This document shows positions 53,043 through 64,000 of a DNA stretch of 64,000 bases, one piece after another (the first letter of the stretch is position 1; each line of letters begins with the position of its first letter). The notes beneath the pieces were generated by a model. That model was not told the DNA's origin and made no database searches. It saw only the letters and a program-made list of their open reading frames with translations. The position numbers and the translations under genes were made by a program. The stretch covers positions 86,516 through 150,515 of the forward strand of contig JAHQWK010000019.1 in NCBI GenBank assembly GCA_029856145.1, written 5' to 3'. Origin of the DNA: Promethearchaeia archaeon (GTDB taxonomy: Archaea; Asgardarchaeota; Lokiarchaeia; Sigyniarchaeales; SOKP01).

Positions 53043-54191
53043 TTATAGTCTAAATTTCTCGTATTTCGAAGTGCAAGGATGGTCATCGGTAACCCAAAAC
53101 TCCCTTTTATTCGGAAGAACAATTATGGAACCTAAGGTTCCCGCTGCGGGGCCATGTGTACAGACAGTGAAATCATCTGGGTCCCTATTGTCATGATCAC
53201 TTAAAATCCTTTTCATTGTATCCATAGTAATTTGGCTTTTGTATTTTTCTAATAACTCAATTTCTCTCTCATAACGTCTTATTGGCGATTCAAGAGGATA
53301 AATATCCATATCATCCATTTTGAACCGTACATAATCAGGTAAATTTGCATCTTTAAGTTCTTCTGTCTGGTAATGGTTAGTGTGAGCTAAAATCCCATCT
53401 TCAGGTCGACGAATTGCATACCGAGTACTTGTAGTTTCAACTACACATGTATCTCCATAAGCGTCCATAAGCCCACAATGGAACCCATTTGAGCGACCAG
53501 TGAAAGTAGTAATAAAATCAATAACTTCTTGAGTTGTAGCACAAGTTTCTAAAGCTTCTTGTATGATGAAAGTGGCTGGAACACCTTTTAACCTAAAATC
53601 TAGAGGCTTTTTTTTCCAAGAACGGCCATAATTATACCCAATTGCTAATCCTTTTTCATTCAATCCCATATGACAACCTATTAGAGAATATTGTGTAAGG
53701 TTTAAATTTTTATAACCATTATCCGGTATTTCTTCACGAACTATTTGGAATGGTTGGAGAACATTGGGGAAATCATAATTCCGTCCAAATATCATCGAAT
53801 TATCCGAAGTAGCTCCTGGAAGTGCGAATATCATTGAACACTCTTGAACTGGAGGATTTTTATAAAGAGATTTTGGGTCTCCTGACATTACTTCTATAAA
53901 ATGACTTCCATAAATTAATCTTCCGTTTATTTCAGCTGCTTTGCTCAGAGCAATCATTTTATTATACTGGTTTGGAAGAAGTAATTGTAAAGATTTCTTA
54001 ATATTTTTTTTACCCATAATACCTAAAGCAAGCTTAATTATTGAAAGTGGAATTAATTTCGATGTGACTTCTGAAAACATTTTTGAGTGGAAGACAACAT
54101 CAAACATATTATGAATTTTATCTTTCAACTGTTCCCCTTGTTGGAAACCTCTCTCCGCAGGACTTCCCTCTATTCTTATAAAATCAACCAT
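53043..54191 (-). CDS. C45-family Ntn hydrolase / acyltransferase
   Basis: ERGFQQG, ECS nucleophile, GRNYD, GLNEKGL and HTNHY. Confidence 0.88.
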   Translation of the reverse strand: MVDFIRIEGSPAERGFQQGEQLKDKIHNMFDVVFHSKMFSEVTSKLIPLSIIKLALGIMGKKNIKKSLQLLLPNQYNKMIALSKAAEINGRLIYGSHFIEVMSGDPKSLYKNPPVQECSMIFALPGATSDNSMIFGRNYDFPNVLQPFQIVREEIPDNGYKNLNLTQYSLIGCHMGLNEKGLAIGYNYGRSWKKKPLDFRLKGVPATFIIQEALETCATTQEVIDFITTFTGRSNGFHCGLMDAYGDTCVVETTSTRYAIRRPEDGILAHTNHYQTEELKDANLPDYVRFKMDDMDIYPLESPIRRYEREIELLEKYKSQITMDTMKRILSDHDNRDPDDFTVCTHGPAAGTLGSIIVLPNKREFWVTDDHPCTSKYEKFRL

Positions 54192-56447: not shown

Positions 56448-57143
56448 TTATTCTGTTTCCTCAATTTCAGGCCTTTCTTTAAGGGATTCAATAATATTTA
56501 TTATATCTTCAGCAAGTTCGTAGCGTTCATCTCGATGCTTCTCTCGATTTAATCTTTTTTCGATGCGTAAAGGTGATCCAATCTTTACTTTAATACCATC
56601 TCCTGTAAACATATTTAGAATCTTAGTCTTATGCGTAGAAATGGCAATTGGAATAATTGGAGCATCTCCAGCAATTGCAAATTTTATAATTGCTGCCATC
56701 GATTTCACCTGTACTTCATGATCATGTCTTGATTCGGGGGTCATGCCTACGAGATCGCCTTTTTCATTCAAAATCTCAAAAATCTTTTCGATTGGTTCGG
56801 TGTCTTCTTTGCTTTCAGTTCCCCGAATCATTCCAAGACTTTTTAAAACAGGACCAGCTATCTGATGTTTCATTAACTTTGGATCCAGCATGAAATGAAT
56901 CTTTCGACCTGATACTTGAGCTATTATTAACATATCTCGGATTATATTTGGTGTGATTGTAGTTAAAATAGCTTTTCCTCTCAAGGGAATATTTTCTTCC
57001 CCTTCAATTTTTAAATCCATAAAAGCCTTAAAAAATAAACCACTAAGTCCTTTTACCGCAGCATATAAGGCATCAAAAGCTATTATTTTTGGATTTAATT
57101 TATCTCCTTCTTCCTTTATTTCCGGACTTGTACTTTCACTCAT
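56448..57143 (-). CDS. PlsC-like lysophospholipid acyltransferase-fold protein lacking HxxxxD
   Basis: KIEGEENIP..G.AIL, IHFM, GMTPE (FPEG equivalent), APIIPIAI and VKIGSPL; the NH..xxD block is replaced by TITPNIIRD. Confidence 0.75.
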   Translation of the reverse strand: MSESTSPEIKEEGDKLNPKIIAFDALYAAVKGLSGLFFKAFMDLKIEGEENIPLRGKAILTTITPNIIRDMLIIAQVSGRKIHFMLDPKLMKHQIAGPVLKSLGMIRGTESKEDTEPIEKIFEILNEKGDLVGMTPESRHDHEVQVKSMAAIIKFAIAGDAPIIPIAISTHKTKILNMFTGDGIKVKIGSPLRIEKRLNREKHRDERYELAEDIINIIESLKERPEIEETE

Positions 57144-57160
57144 TTTTTTATTACCTCTTA

Positions 57161-57355
57161 TTATAATTTATCTATAAAATCATTAACTTCTTCCATTCTT
57201 TTTTCATAATATTCTTTTAAATCTTTTTCTGAAACAAATGAGGGGATAACTTTTTCTGTATAAAGGTCAAAAATTGTACTTAACTTAATTTTATGTCTAA
57301 CAGTTTCAAGGAACTCTTCTCCTAATTCCCTTAATTGTTTTAAAAATTCTGTCAT
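57161..57355 (-). CDS. 64-aa hypothetical protein in the activase operon
   Basis: ATG 57355 lies 4 nt after the activase stop; MTEFLKQLRELGEEFLETVRHK... Confidence 0.65.
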   Translation of the reverse strand: MTEFLKQLRELGEEFLETVRHKIKLSTIFDLYTEKVIPSFVSEKDLKEYYEKRMEEVNDFIDKL

Positions 57356-57359
57356 TTTA

Positions 57360-58382
57360 TTAGAAAACCTCCCATTTTCCGCATCTACTGCCCCAACGAG
57401 CAATAACCTTATTTTCATCCTGTGGCATTTTAACTTGAACAATAGTACAATTGTTAGGGCAATCCCCACAGAGGAATGCTGATGTTGTAAATTCGATGTC
57501 TCCAACATCTAATCCTCGAAATGACGTTTCTGTTGGATGTTCTAAGTAATAATCTCTAATTAAAATTGCCATCCCCAAAGCACCCATTAAAACATTATAT
57601 TTTGGAACAATAATTTTTCGCACTAAGTGTCTTTCAAAGGCCTCAATTATACCCTTATTATAAGATACTCCCCCTTGAAAAACTATAGGTTCGTCAAGTT
57701 CTTTGCCTTTTGTTAGATTGTTCATATAGTTACGTACTAAACTATCACAAAGCCCGGCGACAATATCTTCTCTAGAGTACCCAGCATTTTGCTTATGAAT
57801 CATATCAGATTCCGCAAACACGGTACATCTACCAGCAATGCTTACAGGATTAGTTGATTTTACAGCATAATCACCAAATTCTTCAATAGGTATTCCAAGT
57901 CTTGAAGCTTGATGGTCAAGAAAAGAACCTGTGCCTGCTGCGCAAACGGAGTTCATCGCAAAATCAACAATGATGCCATCTCGAAGGATTATTATTTTTG
58001 AATCTTGTCCTCCAATCTCTAAGATTGTCCTAACATCAGGATATAAAGATTGGGTTGCTACTGCGTGAGCTATAATTTCCGTTTTAGCGAGATCTCCACC
58101 TACAATAGCCTTTGTTAGATACCTTGCTGAGCCTGTTGTACCACAACTACGAATGGTATATCCTAACAATTCTTCATTTTGTTCAATTTTGGACTTTAAT
58201 TCCTCCATACCTGCTTTAGCAGATTCAATTGGAGATCCTCGGTTACGTAGAAAAACGCTTGTAAGTACTTTTCCATCAATATCCATTAGTACAAATTTGC
58301 ATGTAACCGAACCAATGTCAATTCCTAGGAAAGCATCCTGTTTTCCATCATTATTTATAATTTTATCTGAAACTTGGACCAT
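57360..58382 (-). CDS. ATP-dependent [4Fe-4S] activase (BadF/BadG/BcrA/BcrD, HgdC-like), copy 2
   Basis: GIDIGSV, EIGGQDSK, CAAGTGSFL, RCTVFAESD, FQGGV and C-terminal CGDCPNNC...RC. Confidence 0.92.
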   Translation of the reverse strand: MVQVSDKIINNDGKQDAFLGIDIGSVTCKFVLMDIDGKVLTSVFLRNRGSPIESAKAGMEELKSKIEQNEELLGYTIRSCGTTGSARYLTKAIVGGDLAKTEIIAHAVATQSLYPDVRTILEIGGQDSKIIILRDGIIVDFAMNSVCAAGTGSFLDHQASRLGIPIEEFGDYAVKSTNPVSIAGRCTVFAESDMIHKQNAGYSREDIVAGLCDSLVRNYMNNLTKGKELDEPIVFQGGVSYNKGIIEAFERHLVRKIIVPKYNVLMGALGMAILIRDYYLEHPTETSFRGLDVGDIEFTTSAFLCGDCPNNCTIVQVKMPQDENKVIARWGSRCGKWEVF

Positions 58383-58396
58383 GATATTCACTATTT

Positions 58397-59584
58397 CTAT
58401 GTGTGTAATAATTGAGTACATTCATTATAAAAATTATCTCCATAATGCGGATAAATCTTTTTATTATCATTTGCTTGAAATTTAGCATTTTTCATAATTT
58501 CTTGCTTCCGTCTATCAGTGATCAAATCTACAAATGCTTCGATCCGGGTTCTAAATCCACCTTCCGCATCTGCGTGCTCATCAAACGAAAAATAGATAAT
58601 CGGTAAATCATAAATTTTCTTTAATTTATTAGTTATGATCGTTCGGGCTGTTACTTCTGGCATGCAGGTAAATGGATACTCATGGACAAATCCATCGAAT
58701 CCCGCTTTTGCCTTATCTATGTATTCACCCAATACCCACACACATTCCCCTCCAATATCCATTGGAAGGTATGGATGGGATAAGTGTTCCAACCATTTTC
58801 GATGATAATTCAAATGAAATTTATGAACAACCCAGTCATATAAGCTTAAAGATTGGTGGATTTCTACTCCCATCTCACCCAGTTTACGCCTTATATCAAG
58901 GTTTACATATGGTTCCAAACTTATATGAATCTCTCCAGATAACCCTACTCGTAATGGACTTCGAGATTTATCAATGTCAAGATTATTGAAGTCTTCTTTT
59001 ATTACTTTTTTAAAATTTCTAAGCTCTGAGAGCGTATTAGCTTCGTCAAGTTTAAGTAGCATATCATTAAAAATCCTAGTTGTATCTCCTTGATTTCGCT
59101 CGTATGCTCGAAAAACACCCTCAGCTGTTTGAATATCGTTTAAGAGTTTAGCCTTTTTTAAGAAAAAGATAACTGCTTTTACAAATTTTGAATAAATGAA
59201 CAAATCTCTTCGACCACTTAAATCTTGGAGAGTTTTTACCCATTTAAATTCAAGTAAATCTGCTTGATCCAAAGGGATTACACTCACATTTTTGTATCCC
59301 ATATCGTGTAAGAGCCTTTCCTGAACTGCGTGATAAAACCCGAAACGACAAGGACCACAATCTATTGCCATTACGAGTGTGTCAGCTCCCTTCTTAATAG
59401 CGCTCACAAAATCTCCGAGAGTAGCTTTAAATGGGAAACAAACAAATTCTGGGCTATATTTTACTCCAATTTTAATAGCCTCACGATTTGTTGGATCAGG
59501 AACGACCACATCTAAATCAAGGCTTGTAAAGAGTGTTTTAAAAGCGACCCAATTGGGGCCCATATTAGGGAAGGAAATTAACAT
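58397..59584 (-). CDS. 2-hydroxyacyl-CoA dehydratase/reductase-like subunit, copy 2
   Basis: FPNMG, SPEFVCFPFK, GPCRFG, GEIH, DIGGE, PFTCMPE and TRIEAF. Confidence 0.85.
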   Translation of the reverse strand: MLISFPNMGPNWVAFKTLFTSLDLDVVVPDPTNREAIKIGVKYSPEFVCFPFKATLGDFVSAIKKGADTLVMAIDCGPCRFGFYHAVQERLLHDMGYKNVSVIPLDQADLLEFKWVKTLQDLSGRRDLFIYSKFVKAVIFFLKKAKLLNDIQTAEGVFRAYERNQGDTTRIFNDMLLKLDEANTLSELRNFKKVIKEDFNNLDIDKSRSPLRVGLSGEIHISLEPYVNLDIRRKLGEMGVEIHQSLSLYDWVVHKFHLNYHRKWLEHLSHPYLPMDIGGECVWVLGEYIDKAKAGFDGFVHEYPFTCMPEVTARTIITNKLKKIYDLPIIYFSFDEHADAEGGFRTRIEAFVDLITDRRKQEIMKNAKFQANDNKKIYPHYGDNFYNECTQLLHT

Positions 59585-59790
59585 TTTAATTCTAAGAAAT
59601 TTTACCTAGTTAAGTATTTGATCAAAACTATGAAATCAAATAACTCACTCTAAAATAAAAATTTACCGATTATAAACAGATTATCAATCGTATGATACTT
59701 TTAATAAAAATTTCAACAATATTTAATAATCTCCTCCAAAGAGATTTCACTAGATAACAGATCTAAGGTATGCCTTCTCATATTAACATC

Positions 59791-61127
59791 TCAAAGGTTA
59801 AAAAGAGATCCGATATCAAAAAACGAATTTCTTGAAAAAAACTCGAGTCCATTCTTAACGGCGAATCCTACATCTAATTTCTTTGATGGATTCAGCATTG
59901 TTAAAACCTTTGACATTGGTGTTTCAATACTAGACATAAAATATTCAAAATCGGATTTCGGCTTATTAAAATATATATTTTTTACTTCATCCGGGACCAC
60001 ATACTTGACATCTCTAAACAAGGGATTAGTTTTCTTGTTGCCAACCATTAAATCCTGAAATGCTTCGATTCTTGTTCTAAGTCCTTCAAAACCAGAACTT
60101 CCATCAAGACTAATATGAATGTGGGGCATATAAAACTTGTCCATGTTTTTCTCAGCTTCTAACATTCCCATGAAGGATATTTCGGGGAGGCAGGTAAACG
60201 GGAATACATGTACAAAACCATCAAAACCTTTTTCTTGCGATTCGAGATAACTTCCCATGTTCCATACTGCTTCTCCACCGATATCCATCGGTATATACTC
60301 TCTTGCGCTATGTTCAAGCCTTCTTCTTCGTTTGCTGGCGTCAAGTTTGTACATTACCCAATCAAAGACATCGTACTGTTTATGTACTTCTATTCCCATG
60401 ACACCTAATTCTCCCATTAGATCATAATTAACCCATTTCTCCAACATGACTTGGATCTCCCCAGTATAACATACCCTCAAAGGTTCCATTTCCTTGTCAA
60501 TAGGAATCTTGCGAAAATTTTCATCTATCGTTCTATCAAAATTAGATAATTTCATCAAATTATTTTCGTTATCAAGTAAATTCATCAAAGTATGAACTAC
60601 TTTGGTAGTCATTGCTTTGTTTTTTTCTCGACATCTAACAAGTCCTTCAATATGGCTTATTCTTTCAACATAGTATGCTTTGACCAAGAACAAGAGTGTG
60701 TTTCTTAAAACTTTATAGTCATCAATTTTTCTTCCTGTTCTTTTTTCTAAATCACGAAATACCCTTAGCCATTCAAGATTTCGAAAATCATCTTGACGCA
60801 GATAAAACATTCTAACATCCTTGAATCCCATGTTTTTCATGATTCTTTTCTGGACAACAGCATAGATTCCTGCTCGACAAGGGCCGTAGTCAGCAATCAT
60901 CGCAAAATCTTTAACATCATAATTACGATACAGGTTTATCATTTCACCAAGAATGACTTTAAATGGAAAACAAACGAATTCAGGAGAAACTTTGACTCCT
61001 TCACTAACGATTTCAGTGTTTACTAGAGGGGGTCAACAACTTCGATACCAGGAAGATCATGGAATAAACCTTTGAAAAAAATATAGCTCCAACCCATTCG
61101 TGAAAATGAAACTCTAACATTTACCAT
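59791..61127 (-). pseudogene. 2-hydroxyacyl-CoA dehydratase/reductase-like subunit, copy 1, split by a one-base frameshift
   Basis: ATG 61127 gives MVNVRVSFSRMGWSYIFFKGLFHDLPGIEVVDP, then stops at 61023-61025. One extra C in the C5 run (plus-strand G5, 61028-61032) joins it to PLVNTEIVSEGVKVSPEFVCFPFK and the 59791-60942 ORF, collinear with copy 2. Confidence 0.85.
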
Positions 61128-62152
61128 TTACCGCACCTACTATTCCATCGTGCAAATATCGCATCATCCTTTTCTCTTCCATTTACTCTACTTTTATCTT
61201 CTTGCCTGACAAGGTATTTAACTGTACATCTATTTGCACAATCAAGACAGCCAAATGAACCTTGAGCCAAGTTCATTTCACTAACTTTTAGGCCATGAAA
61301 AGAAGATATCTGTCCATTTACATGTTCCTTTGCCAAAACGGCTGAACCAAATGCTCCCATCACGTAAAAGTTTTCATGAATAATGACTTCATACCCCAAT
61401 TCTTCTTCAAAAGCATTTTTTATTCCGGAATTTGCTGCAACTCCTCCCTGGAATACGAAGGGAGGATACATTTTTTTACCCTTGCAAACATTATTCAAGT
61501 AGTTTCTAACAAGAGCTTTACACAATCCCTTGATAATTGATTCTTTAGAATATCCTTCTTGTTGTTTACTGATCATATCAGATTCGGCAAAAACTGTGCA
61601 TCGTCCTGCAATTGAAACCTCCTCTTCTGCCCGAAGAGCATAATCCCCAAATTCTTCAATTGGAACCTTGATCCGAATTGCTTGGTGATCTAGAAAAGAA
61701 CCAGTTCCGGCAGCACAAACACTGTTCATGTTAAAATCTGTTACGATGCCATTTTTCATCAATATAACTTTGCTGTCCTGTCCCCCGATTTCAAGAATTG
61801 TTCTCACGTCAGGGGTATAAGTTGAAGCTCCAATTGCATGAGCAATTATTTCAGGTTTTGCTATATCTGCACCGATAAGAGCTTTTATTAAATACCTAGC
61901 AGAACCTGTTGTCCCAACGCCACAAATACTTTTTTCTATGTTATCGGGAAGGACTTCTTCCATGTATTTTAGATTTTCTTGTGTAGAAACAATGGGAGAA
62001 CCGTCATTTCTGGTCCAGGTAGCAAATAATAATTCATTTCTCTCATTAATTATTGCCATTTTCGTGGAGACACTTCCGACATCGATTCCTAGATATAACT
62101 TGTCATCCACATGATCTGAAAGAATATTCTTGATAAATTCTGGTTCATTCAA
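61121..62152 (-). CDS. ATP-dependent [4Fe-4S] activase, copy 1
   Basis: GIDVGSVSTK, EIGGQDSK, CAAGTGSFL, RCTVFAESD, FQGGV and CLDCANRC...RCGKW. Confidence 0.92.
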   Translation of the reverse strand: MNEPEFIKNILSDHVDDKLYLGIDVGSVSTKMAIINERNELLFATWTRNDGSPIVSTQENLKYMEEVLPDNIEKSICGVGTTGSARYLIKALIGADIAKPEIIAHAIGASTYTPDVRTILEIGGQDSKVILMKNGIVTDFNMNSVCAAGTGSFLDHQAIRIKVPIEEFGDYALRAEEEVSIAGRCTVFAESDMISKQQEGYSKESIIKGLCKALVRNYLNNVCKGKKMYPPFVFQGGVAANSGIKNAFEEELGYEVIIHENFYVMGAFGSAVLAKEHVNGQISSFHGLKVSEMNLAQGSFGCLDCANRCTVKYLVRQEDKSRVNGREKDDAIFARWNSRCGKW

Positions 62153-64000
62153 TTGTATTTCTTCCTCCTTATCATTTCGATAAAAGATTCTACTCTTGTA
62201 GTTATTTGAGACTCTCCAGTGTGTTCATCTAATGTGAGATCAATATAAGGCTTATCTTTCTTGTCAAAATCCTGCATTACCAATTCTTGAATTAAAGAAT
62301 CAGGACCACATGCAAAAGAAATCAAGAAAATACCCCCATCAATCTCTTCATTATTGATAACGTAATCAGATAATTGCAACAATTCATCCTCATTATCCCA
62401 GAAATTGACAAGATTATCATCAATTTCAACCCTGTTTGAGAAGATTGCCTTTGGAGCATTTTCAACAGTAATAACATCAACAAAATTGGATTTGAGGATG
62501 TCCATTAATCCATGATTAATAATTGATTCATAAGTATTGTATGGATGACCAAGAACCATTAATTTAAGTGGATAATTTTCATAATCTTTGTTAAGTTTAG
62601 GTCGAAATCTTTTCTTAAACTTATAATTTGGATATTTTTCAAAAGGATACATTTTTAAAAGTGCATCAGGAACAATAATTCCATCCCCAATCAACTCATG
62701 GAATTCTTCAAGCTTTTTTTTTCCATTCTCATACGCAAGTTTTACTTGTTCTTTTGATTTATCTAATTTTTTTCCAAAATCTATTGCTGATTTCAGAACA
62801 GATTTTTCCCTGGCATTAAAAATCCATTCAATAACGGGAATATTAGAAACTGCTGAGTGTTGAGTGACATCAGGAAGGATCAGGAATTTCGGACAATAAT
62901 AATGATCATTACTATTACTAATGAGTCTTGGAACAAATATAAAATCTAGATCGGGGTGATTTCTCGATAAATAATTCACATGACCATAATGAATCTTGAC
63001 TGGAATGCATAAATCGGTTGCAGATTGATTAGATCCGTTGGTAAGAATTTCTTTGTTTGTTTCTGGACTCACAATAACTTCGCAACCAAGACTTGTAAGC
63101 ATTCCTTCCCATAATGGAAAATACTTGTAGAAATACAGGGAACGTGGTATACCTACCTTCAATCTTCTCGTCTTTTCAGTCTTTTTCTTATAATTCGTCT
63201 TTTCGTACAAGTTTCGAAATAGGTTCTTGGGATCCGTTCGTTCTTTCACTTTATCGTATAATTTCTTGTTATATATCTTCCAGAACAAGTCTTCCTCGTA
63301 GAAATTGTGAGTTATCAGGGTTTTCATTCCCTTGAGTTCATGAACCTTTTCTTCTAGCGCTTTATAGAAGTTAAATCCCTTTCTTTTTTGCTCGAACCCG
63401 TAGATGGCAAAATCTATGAATAGCTCATCCTCGATGGACGCGAACATGTCTTGATTGAGCCATGGGTAGAACTTGTACCCATCTAGTTTGTTTTTTTGCA
63501 TGCGGTAAGGGACAATCCAAACCGGGAAGTAATCAAATACCTCCAGGTACCAATTGAAAAATTCTTCCGCGTGAGTGATTGGTATGAATACATCAACAAT
63601 CACATCTGGTTCTCCCCCCTTCTTAGTTAAAAATGGCAATCGTTCGCTGATCTTAAGAATATTTGTCGATCCAAGTATAAAAGGCCCTACTAACCACCGG
63701 GCTACTTTATTTTCAAAAATTCCTCCAGCAACATTCCGTATCGACCAGTGGCAATCTGCGTCATACCTGAAAAAATAATCTATGGTGGAGAGGTAGTCTT
63801 GCTTTCTTTTCATCGCACTTTTGTAATAAATATCGTAGAAATATTTACTCTTGTAAGGAGCTTCCTCCTCATTAACGAAGCTGGCAACGCAGAGTACGTT
63901 CATATTCTCGGAGAAGATAAGCCCGTCCATCATTTCAATATCCTGCTTTTCGTAGTGTTGCTTGATAGCTTCCATGTATTCACTAAAAGTATCGTAACGG
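62149..64000 (-). CDS. FAD oxidoreductase (DHCR24/TmsA-like, N-terminus outside the window) in frame with a DUF2229-like activase-associated subunit (62149-63162)
   Basis: Frame is open to the window edge. FAD part: DYFFRYD, DVFIP, PVWIVP, LEEKV, KERTDP.NLF.NLYEK. Then KVGIPRSL, DLCIPVKIHYGHV, YCPKF, LGHPYN, FACGPDS and DEHTGE...TRVESF. Confidence 0.8.
   Translation of the reverse strand, partial: RYDTFSEYMEAIKQHYEKQDIEMMDGLIFSENMNVLCVASFVNEEEAPYKSKYFYDIYYKSAMKRKQDYLSTIDYFFRYDADCHWSIRNVAGGIFENKVARWLVGPFILGSTNILKISERLPFLTKKGGEPDVIVDVFIPITHAEEFFNWYLEVFDYFPVWIVPYRMQKNKLDGYKFYPWLNQDMFASIEDELFIDFAIYGFEQKRKGFNFYKALEEKVHELKGMKTLITHNFYEEDLFWKIYNKKLYDKVKERTDPKNLFRNLYEKTNYKKKTEKTRRLKVGIPRSLYFYKYFPLWEGMLTSLGCEVIVSPETNKEILTNGSNQSATDLCIPVKIHYGHVNYLSRNHPDLDFIFVPRLISNSNDHYYCPKFLILPDVTQHSAVSNIPVIEWIFNAREKSVLKSAIDFGKKLDKSKEQVKLAYENGKKKLEEFHELIGDGIIVPDALLKMYPFEKYPNYKFKKRFRPKLNKDYENYPLKLMVLGHPYNTYESIINHGLMDILKSNFVDVITVENAPKAIFSNRVEIDDNLVNFWDNEDELLQLSDYVINNEEIDGGIFLISFACGPDSLIQELVMQDFDKKDKPYIDLTLDEHTGESQITTRVESFIEMIRRKKYN

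Follow-up and report, generated by a model that had tools for sequence, protein, structure and literature searches.

Do the genes at the end of a lokiarchaeal contig equip an archaeon with a bacterial-type ether-lipid pathway, and do they encode one enzyme or several? The window analyzed here comprises 64,000 nucleotides (nt) at the end of contig JAHQWK010000019.1 (C19) of a Promethearchaeia archaeon (Sigyniarchaeales; source genome 97% complete) and closes with a run of seven minus-strand genes (56448-64000). An earlier note, made from the sequence alone, had taken this run for a single plasmalogen synthase or glycerol ester reductase (PlsA/PlsR of Clostridium perfringens, Ger of Thermotoga maritima) split into parts. 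We found that it is a mosaic of two paralogous units of different age, each composed of a DUF2229 subunit (D), a dehydratase-like subunit (H), and a single activase (A). One unit is resident; the other arrived as a cassette in which the D subunit, denoted D', is fused to a flavoprotein domain binding flavin adenine dinucleotide (FAD). Judging by sequence comparison, these D-H-A units are three-gene, single-activase members of the PlsA/PlsR/Ger superfamily. We give an even chance to the proposal that they are two ATP-driven enzymes reducing acyl glycerolipids, with the flavoprotein acting on a C=C bond of the product. The anatomy of the locus, the family assignment, the acyltransferase linkage, and the lateral spread follow directly from the comparisons described below.

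All seven genes were recovered in the order given in the earlier note, on a common strand, with the 206-nt gap (59585-59790) and the open reading frame (ORF) of 64 codons in place. The Pfam assignments were also reproduced: DUF2229 and HGD-D in the C-terminal half of the first ORF (FAD::D'), BcrAD_BadFG in the activases A1 (61121-62152) and A2 (57360-58382), traces of DUF2229/HGD-D in H1 (59791-61127) and H2 (58397-59584), and a weak acyltransferase match in PlsC' (56448-57143). Both activases indeed contain two cluster Cys (CAAG and GRCT motifs) and a CxxCxNxC...RC tail. Close homologs carry the names Promethearchaeota or Lokiarchaeota.

The family assignment is carried by the D and H subunits and by the Cys tail. 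Profiles built from 27 Asgard D and 27 Asgard H subunits scored 93-159 and 33-75 bits (best domain), respectively, against PlsA-type reduction domains, compared with 8-23 bits against YjiM/Hgd/Bzd-like subunits. The three Cys in each of D and H (Cys49, Cys79, and Cys307 in H2) align one to one with those of the fused proteins of Listeria and Fusobacterium, and D and H are the counterparts of PlsA reduction domain 1 (Red1) and of PlsR, respectively. In the tree, the D subunits and PlsA Red1 were separated from six Hgd/Bzd/YjiM-like rows (support 99/100), with the exception of one long rogue row. The CxxCxNxC...RC tail is common to the fused PlsA-type proteins and missing in YjiL, Hgd-like, and Bzd-like activases. 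A1 and A2 belong to one clade with the single activases of Monoglobus and Heimdallarchaeia, sister to the second activase domain of PlsA (94/88). In these trees, the fused homologs from Listeria, Fusobacterium, and others served as proxies for the experimentally confirmed proteins of C. perfringens, E. faecalis, T. maritima, and D. alkenivorans, the Listeria protein by architecture only, as a literature search for lmo0788 returned nothing. None of the curated Bcr/Bzd/Had family cut-offs was reached by the window subunits. Profiles, together with the check by phylogeny proposed in the earlier note, place D, H, and the tail with PlsA/PlsR/Ger, to the exclusion of Hgd/Bzd, whereas the tree of the activases does not decide the matter by itself.

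That tree bears on the reading of these genes as a fermentative 2-hydroxyacyl-coenzyme A (CoA) dehydratase or an aryl-CoA reductase unrelated to lipids, a version of which the earlier note gave as its alternative and which we consider highly improbable. The approximately unbiased (AU) test allows the single activases on the Hgd/Bzd side (p 0.074), the superfamily is shared, and the host group ferments amino acids. HgdABC/HadBCI, benzoyl-CoA reductase, and DCCP/YjiML likewise combine an ASKHA activase with two cluster Cys and show distant fold homology to the window subunits, but these systems lack the Cys tail, show no DUF2229 match, and form separate clades. Moreover, the source genome encodes separate Hgd-like and Bzd-like operons with subunits in another clade, neither CoA-transferase nor electron-transfer flavoprotein neighbors were seen, and the repeated linkage to PlsC, PlsY, DegV, and SCP2 points away from fermentation.

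Among the characterized systems, PlsA/PlsR (two genes in C. perfringens, a single gene in Enterococcus, Lactococcus, and Listeria) shares with the Asgard units a tailed activase, DUF2229 and PlsR-like subunits, and three Cys per reduction subunit, as compared across homologs from Listeria, Fusobacterium, Collinsella, Acetoanaerobium, and Haliovirga. The Asgard units differ in having one activase versus two fused ones, three separate genes with 20-37% identity, linkage to acyltransferases, a flavoprotein fusion, and an archaeal host. Ger (T. maritima Tmari_0479 and D. alkenivorans; PMC13159169) has the same domain set, whereas in the confirmed enzyme DUF2229 is fused to two activation domains, and a flavoprotein is not needed. 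The architecture and gene order of the resident unit recur unchanged in three-gene D-H-A operons of Bacillota with single-activase PlsA-like proteins (PMC13274423). The best bacterial match, from Monoglobus pectinilyticus (activase 52% and H 33% identical), has no adjoining acyltransferase or FAD fusion, and the function of the Bacillota operons is likewise putative. The window encodes no protein that joins two activation domains in tandem to DUF2229 (BBD), so that the units fall outside a strict definition of PlsA/Ger; that they work in the same way seems to us a matter of roughly equal balance.

That the seven genes are not parts of one dismantled PlsA is evident on two grounds. First, the single activases group together in a clade next to the second, not the first, activase domain of PlsA and, accordingly, are not halves of one protein. 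Second, the genes belong to two three-gene units of different age, and the genome has a separate two-activase pair on contig C29 (L032:8591-12951), namely a 985-amino-acid (aa) PlsA with two activases and DUF2229, the BBD gene of this genome, and a 466-aa PlsR-like protein. This pair is inserted after the resident D gene and is the closest in architecture to PlsA/PlsR of C. perfringens. As a separate observation, single-gene, fully fused PlsA-type proteins of 1412-1482 aa are encoded in the sister family (L067:5081-9526, Ca. Harpocratesius repetitus; L068; L069). These are probably the Ger homologs reported previously, which were described in Lokiarchaeota and Heimdallarchaeota (PMC13159169).

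In gene maps covering about 100 related loci, the resident operon has the order haloacid dehalogenase (HAD) phosphatase, tandem PlsC, D, H, A, short peptide, PlsC'. Several genera have it intact, whereas in the source genus it is broken into two pieces that lie near each other: the window holds H2, A2, the 64-aa protein (57161-57355), and PlsC', and the matching D gene and intact tandem PlsC are on C29. The 64-aa protein, conserved after the activase in acyltransferase-linked lokiarchaeal units, belongs to no known family; the possibility that it is a detached PlsA linker was discarded after a profile search and an Atlas search gave no match. The resident H gene was identified in 50 of the 61 genomes of the family with at least 80% completeness, in all four of the sister family, and in 31/34 genomes from two families with proteins bearing the name Heimdallarchaeota; the other families sampled yielded no match. 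Between C29 and C19, an estimated ~254 nt are unassembled according to an alignment to a relative. At the end of C29, a second H gene is present in truncated form, as its first 78 codons, with the start of the FAD protein directly after, so that the N-terminus of the flavoprotein sits on that contig. A TATA-like element (59687-59663) lies in the 206-nt gap before H2 and recurs before the H fragment on C29; therefore, the window genes probably form two transcription units rather than one. A scan for sigma-70 promoters and terminators, a method ill-suited to archaea, gave results at chance level.

The second unit, FAD::D'-A1-H1, was detected in ~23-26 of 134 genomes of the family, in seven genera, and in none of the 26 other genomes of the class Lokiarchaeia at a strict threshold; nor was it found in the families of the cultured strains. 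It spread recently between genera. The cassette genes differ from their counterparts in other genera by 0.04-0.65 synonymous (dS) and 0.02-0.08 nonsynonymous (dN) substitutions per site, whereas in the same genomes the resident D, H, A, and PlsC genes have dS of at least 1.7 or are saturated. Compared with a genome of another genus, identity is 93-98% across H1 and the gap and then falls to 70-81% inside H2; the minus-strand spacer itself (59585-59790) is 97-98% identical and hence arrived with the cassette. The cassette ends are ragged, often retaining remnants of the 3'-end of a donor D and the 5'-end of a donor H gene. Among ~30 loci with readable flanks, about half have the cassette no more than 1 kb from a D, H, or PlsR-like gene of the resident type. 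It often follows a resident H gene that is cut short, and the breakpoints are near codons 44, 48, 63, 79, 110, and 246. In the source genome, the cassette interrupts the resident H gene. No recombinase (transposase or integrase) was noticed near the cassette among the flanking ORFs, which are only partly annotated. These features suggest repeated, homology-assisted integration behind a resident promoter. The cassette being recent and confined to one family, it has little bearing on ancient events.

Two apparent cases of wider spread were dismissed. The cassette of an "Ignavibacteriales" bin (L197, JAFGID010000177.1) is on a contig with archaeal genes (PCNA-like and TFS-like) that is probably misbinned, and a match in a "Nitrosopumilaceae" bin has no flanks and was not counted. 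Contigs from RNA libraries span the cassette and not the resident genes; given DNA carry-over and the selection of runs by the cassette itself, this proves neither expression nor silence.

The cassette may no longer be functional in the source strain. In the assembly, H1 (444 aa in relatives) lacks one base at ~61029-61034 in comparison with nine relatives and with contigs of three sequencing runs. The start of this gene lies at 61127, overlapping the stop of A1, rather than at 60942. Because the relatives share the same 5' sequence and start at the upstream ATG, there is a single lesion; two frameshifts, also considered, were discarded. Decay of the cassette, with H1 a true pseudogene and the flavoprotein fusion or the resident unit alone working, is a serious possibility that we rate slightly below even. 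The base missing early in the gene is consistent with decay, as is the constraint on D', which is the weakest seen in close pairs (dN ~0.04 at dS 0.06-0.09). Conversely, H1 is otherwise intact, with 85-95% identity to relatives, and the lesion, next to a run of C, may have arisen in assembly.

The glycerolipid-reductase reading draws on the genes that accompany the D-H-A units. The linkage to acyltransferases anticipated in the earlier note is conserved in Lokiarchaeia, and unfused D'-A-H relatives (55-64% identity) are also placed after an acyltransferase. Of the 19 heimdallarchaeial loci read, three have DegV with PlsY (two genomes) or DegV upstream of D-H-A; such gene runs, in the order DegV-PlsY-D-H-A, are those of L153:7818-13331 and L154 (heimdallarchaeial genomes G310 and G242) and of L150:6681-10870. 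This PlsY is of an acyltransferase family other than PlsC. One lokiarchaeal paralog comes after a gene for the SCP2 lipid carrier. The adjacent PlsC' gene did not bear out as an active acyltransferase: the HX4D His is missing in 18 of the 19 orthologs, and the protein is probably non-catalytic. In another lokiarchaeal family, three acyltransferase domains are fused in an 876-aa protein (L137:13863-16493, genome G316), with the His-less type in third position. Both domains of the tandem PlsC on C29 keep HX4D and an FPEGT-like motif. All PlsC-family domains found in the source genome are at the C19 window and C29 loci; PlsY and geranylgeranylglyceryl phosphate (GGGP) synthase are also encoded, and a glycerol-kinase-like gene was below cut-off. 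PlsC and PlsY in Lokiarchaeota have been published (PMC6737245). Directly upstream of the tandem PlsC on C29, we also noted a steroid-5-alpha-reductase-family gene (PF02544) in addition to the conserved HAD phosphatase (L032:3251-5041).

The same neighborhoods could be construed differently, with the acyltransferase-linked reductases remodeling or degrading lipids from other cells, or reducing an acyl donor (acyl-CoA or acyl-phosphate), rather than making ethers of the cell's own membrane. We regard this as rather unlikely. It is compatible with the fatty-acid carriers DegV and SCP2 adjoining other Asgard copies, with the presence of GGGP synthase and the failure to find GpsA, and with the isoprenoid lipids of cultured relatives. 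By contrast, the motifs kept in both domains of the tandem PlsC, together with PlsY, fit synthesis, and the characterized members of the superfamily act on diacyl lipids.

The flavoprotein domain (63196-64000 for the part in the window, cut by the contig end) forms the N-terminal half of FAD::D' and is joined through a Lys-rich linker to D' (linker and D' at 62149-63195), which keeps the three conserved Cys. The FAD::DUF2229 fusion described in the earlier note was corroborated by full-length versions of 803-846 aa in other genomes and databases; full-length fusions in many genomes also rule out an assembly chimera as its origin. In all full-length copies read, the fusion is in frame and under purifying selection. 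Third-position G+C content is 0.49 in the FAD part versus ~0.25 for D' and neighbors. The domain is modeled with a mean predicted local distance difference test (pLDDT) of 94.7 as a VAO/PCMH fold to which no solved structure is closely related (best template modeling score ~0.66). Its homology to the BfaA/TmsA 10-methylene-stearate reductase and the DHCR24/DWF1 sterol reductase, both of which reduce lipid C=C bonds, is full-length, including the FAD-binding signature and the C-terminal substrate domain. It scores 0.97 with Delta24-sterol-reductase clusters, aligns over the full length with an actinobacterial BfaA-type protein (E 1.6e-54), and is 29% identical to a Tsukamurella protein, one of the actinobacterial homologs encoded ahead of a methyltransferase in the way that BfaA is ahead of the Cfa-like methyltransferase BfaB. 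Alkyl-dihydroxyacetone phosphate synthase (AGPS) was rejected as its identity: the match is weak and confined to the N-terminus (E 9e-5 to 3e-3), and AGPS is absent from the top 50 fold matches. In the tree, the domain falls together with stand-alone homologs from GC-rich Asgard contigs and with a protein of the anaerobic protist Anaeramoeba flamelloides, in a mostly bacterial clade, and this subclade is separate and nested among Spirochaetota-like sequences. The Anaeramoeba protein (P0020) carries the annotation 24-dehydrocholesterol reductase and shares 60% identity with the FAD domain, possibly reflecting gene transfer or contamination.

The DHCR24/BfaA family reduces unactivated alkenes in lipids. 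For this reason, an enol-ether bond is the best candidate among C=C bonds of a lipid product, the most likely target of the flavoprotein. Protonation of a vinyl ether and subsequent hydride transfer would fit the mechanism commonly attributed to sterol reductases. BfaA itself uses NADPH to reduce an exocyclic methylene group in the acyl chains of phospholipids (PMC7791843). Unlike BfaA/TmsA, the cassette flavoprotein has no BfaB partner and is fused to an Fe-S reductase subunit. A BfaB-like neighbor was not seen in any cassette or at ~48 stand-alone FAD loci, and a full-length Cfa/BfaB-type methyltransferase was not found in the source genome. In a Myxococcota bin (JBFFBT010000221.1, L262:1622-7314), a fused PlsA/Ger of 1435 aa is encoded directly upstream of a stand-alone flavoprotein on the same strand. 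This is a single case, with a flavoprotein of another subclade than the cassette FAD, and the Red1 domain of this PlsA/Ger groups with the two-activase protein on C29 (100/98).

If the D-H-A units act on lipids, the flavoprotein might still have a substrate of its own, such as the double bond of an isoprenoid, a sterol, or another scavenged lipid, the fusion merely coupling expression or membrane location with no part in finishing ether synthesis. This is possible but, in our estimate, unlikely. The known substrates of the family are sterol side chains and exocyclic methylene groups, the stand-alone homologs are mostly orphans with the closest Asgard ones beside MFS transporters, and there is the close homolog in an anaerobic protist. 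The in-frame fusion under purifying selection, the independent PlsA/Ger adjacency in Myxococcota, and the missing methyltransferase as a source of methylene lipids argue the other way.

For the proposal of two ether-forming glycerolipid reductases, we infer the substrate, product, subunit assembly, and flavoprotein role as follows. The tandem HX4D PlsC and HAD phosphatase of an ancestral operon HAD-PlsC/PlsC-D-H-A-peptide-PlsC', with PlsY encoded elsewhere in the genome, would supply the substrate. The single activase would presumably pair with itself and, like HgdC, hold a 4Fe-4S cluster between its two copies. At the cost of ATP, it would feed electrons of low potential to D and H, joined as a heterodimer with three-Cys Fe-S sites, and an acyl ester of the glycerolipid would likely be reduced to a vinyl or alkyl ether. 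The second unit, D'-A1-H1, is foreign; fused to the DHCR24/BfaA-type flavoprotein, it has recently moved between genera, often recombining into a resident D or H gene behind the resident promoter. A yet-unknown enzyme converting vinyl to alkyl ethers has been postulated, and single-activase homologs, as candidate enzymes, correlate with plasmalogens in Bacillota (PMC13274423).

Several observations weigh against this proposal, apart from the AU test and the frameshift in H1 described above. The Ger authors call the ether-lipid role of single-activase units unclear (10.1101/2022.04.21.487849; PMC13274423). T. maritima Ger alone yields saturated ethers in E. coli (PMC13159169), so that the flavoprotein is not generally needed, and only 1 of ~48 stand-alone FAD loci adjoins a PlsA-type gene. 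The closest unfused D'-A-H relative found (70-77%, on a GC-rich contig) has a non-acyltransferase gene upstream, and most heimdallarchaeial D-H-A copies have no lipid neighbor. Neither GpsA nor a clear glycerol-1-phosphate dehydrogenase (EgsA) was found in the 97% complete genome, and the cultured relative P. syntrophicum gave only isoprenoid chains after ether cleavage (PMC7015854). The most far-reaching version holds that Lokiarchaeia use a single-activase PlsA-type enzyme to make ether glycerolipids derived from fatty acyls, that the flavoprotein is the vinyl-to-alkyl ether reductase, and that this trait is spreading between genera by recombination into a resident lipid operon. Taken as a whole, this version appears improbable.

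The presence of non-isoprenoid glycerolipids in Asgard archaea is a question tied to the membrane switch at the origin of eukaryotes. In this respect, the conserved operon represents a complete candidate gene set for bacterial-type ether lipids in close relatives of eukaryotes, and the PlsY/DegV linkage in Heimdallarchaeia carries this set towards the lineage nearest eukaryotes. The FAD fusion is a concrete candidate for the postulated vinyl-to-alkyl step, and the units could offer the first functional test for the widespread single-activase PlsA-like operons. In the literature searched, coverage of which is incomplete, we found no publication on the fusion or on the operon linkage.

Two further loci on C19 may be mentioned. 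A BzdNOPQ-like benzoyl-CoA reductase operon with ferredoxin is located outside the window, at C19:10540-14759. Within the window, two genes downstream of PlsC', there is a minus-strand gene for a C45-family Ntn-hydrolase (53043-54191), which is conserved in many genomes of the genus.

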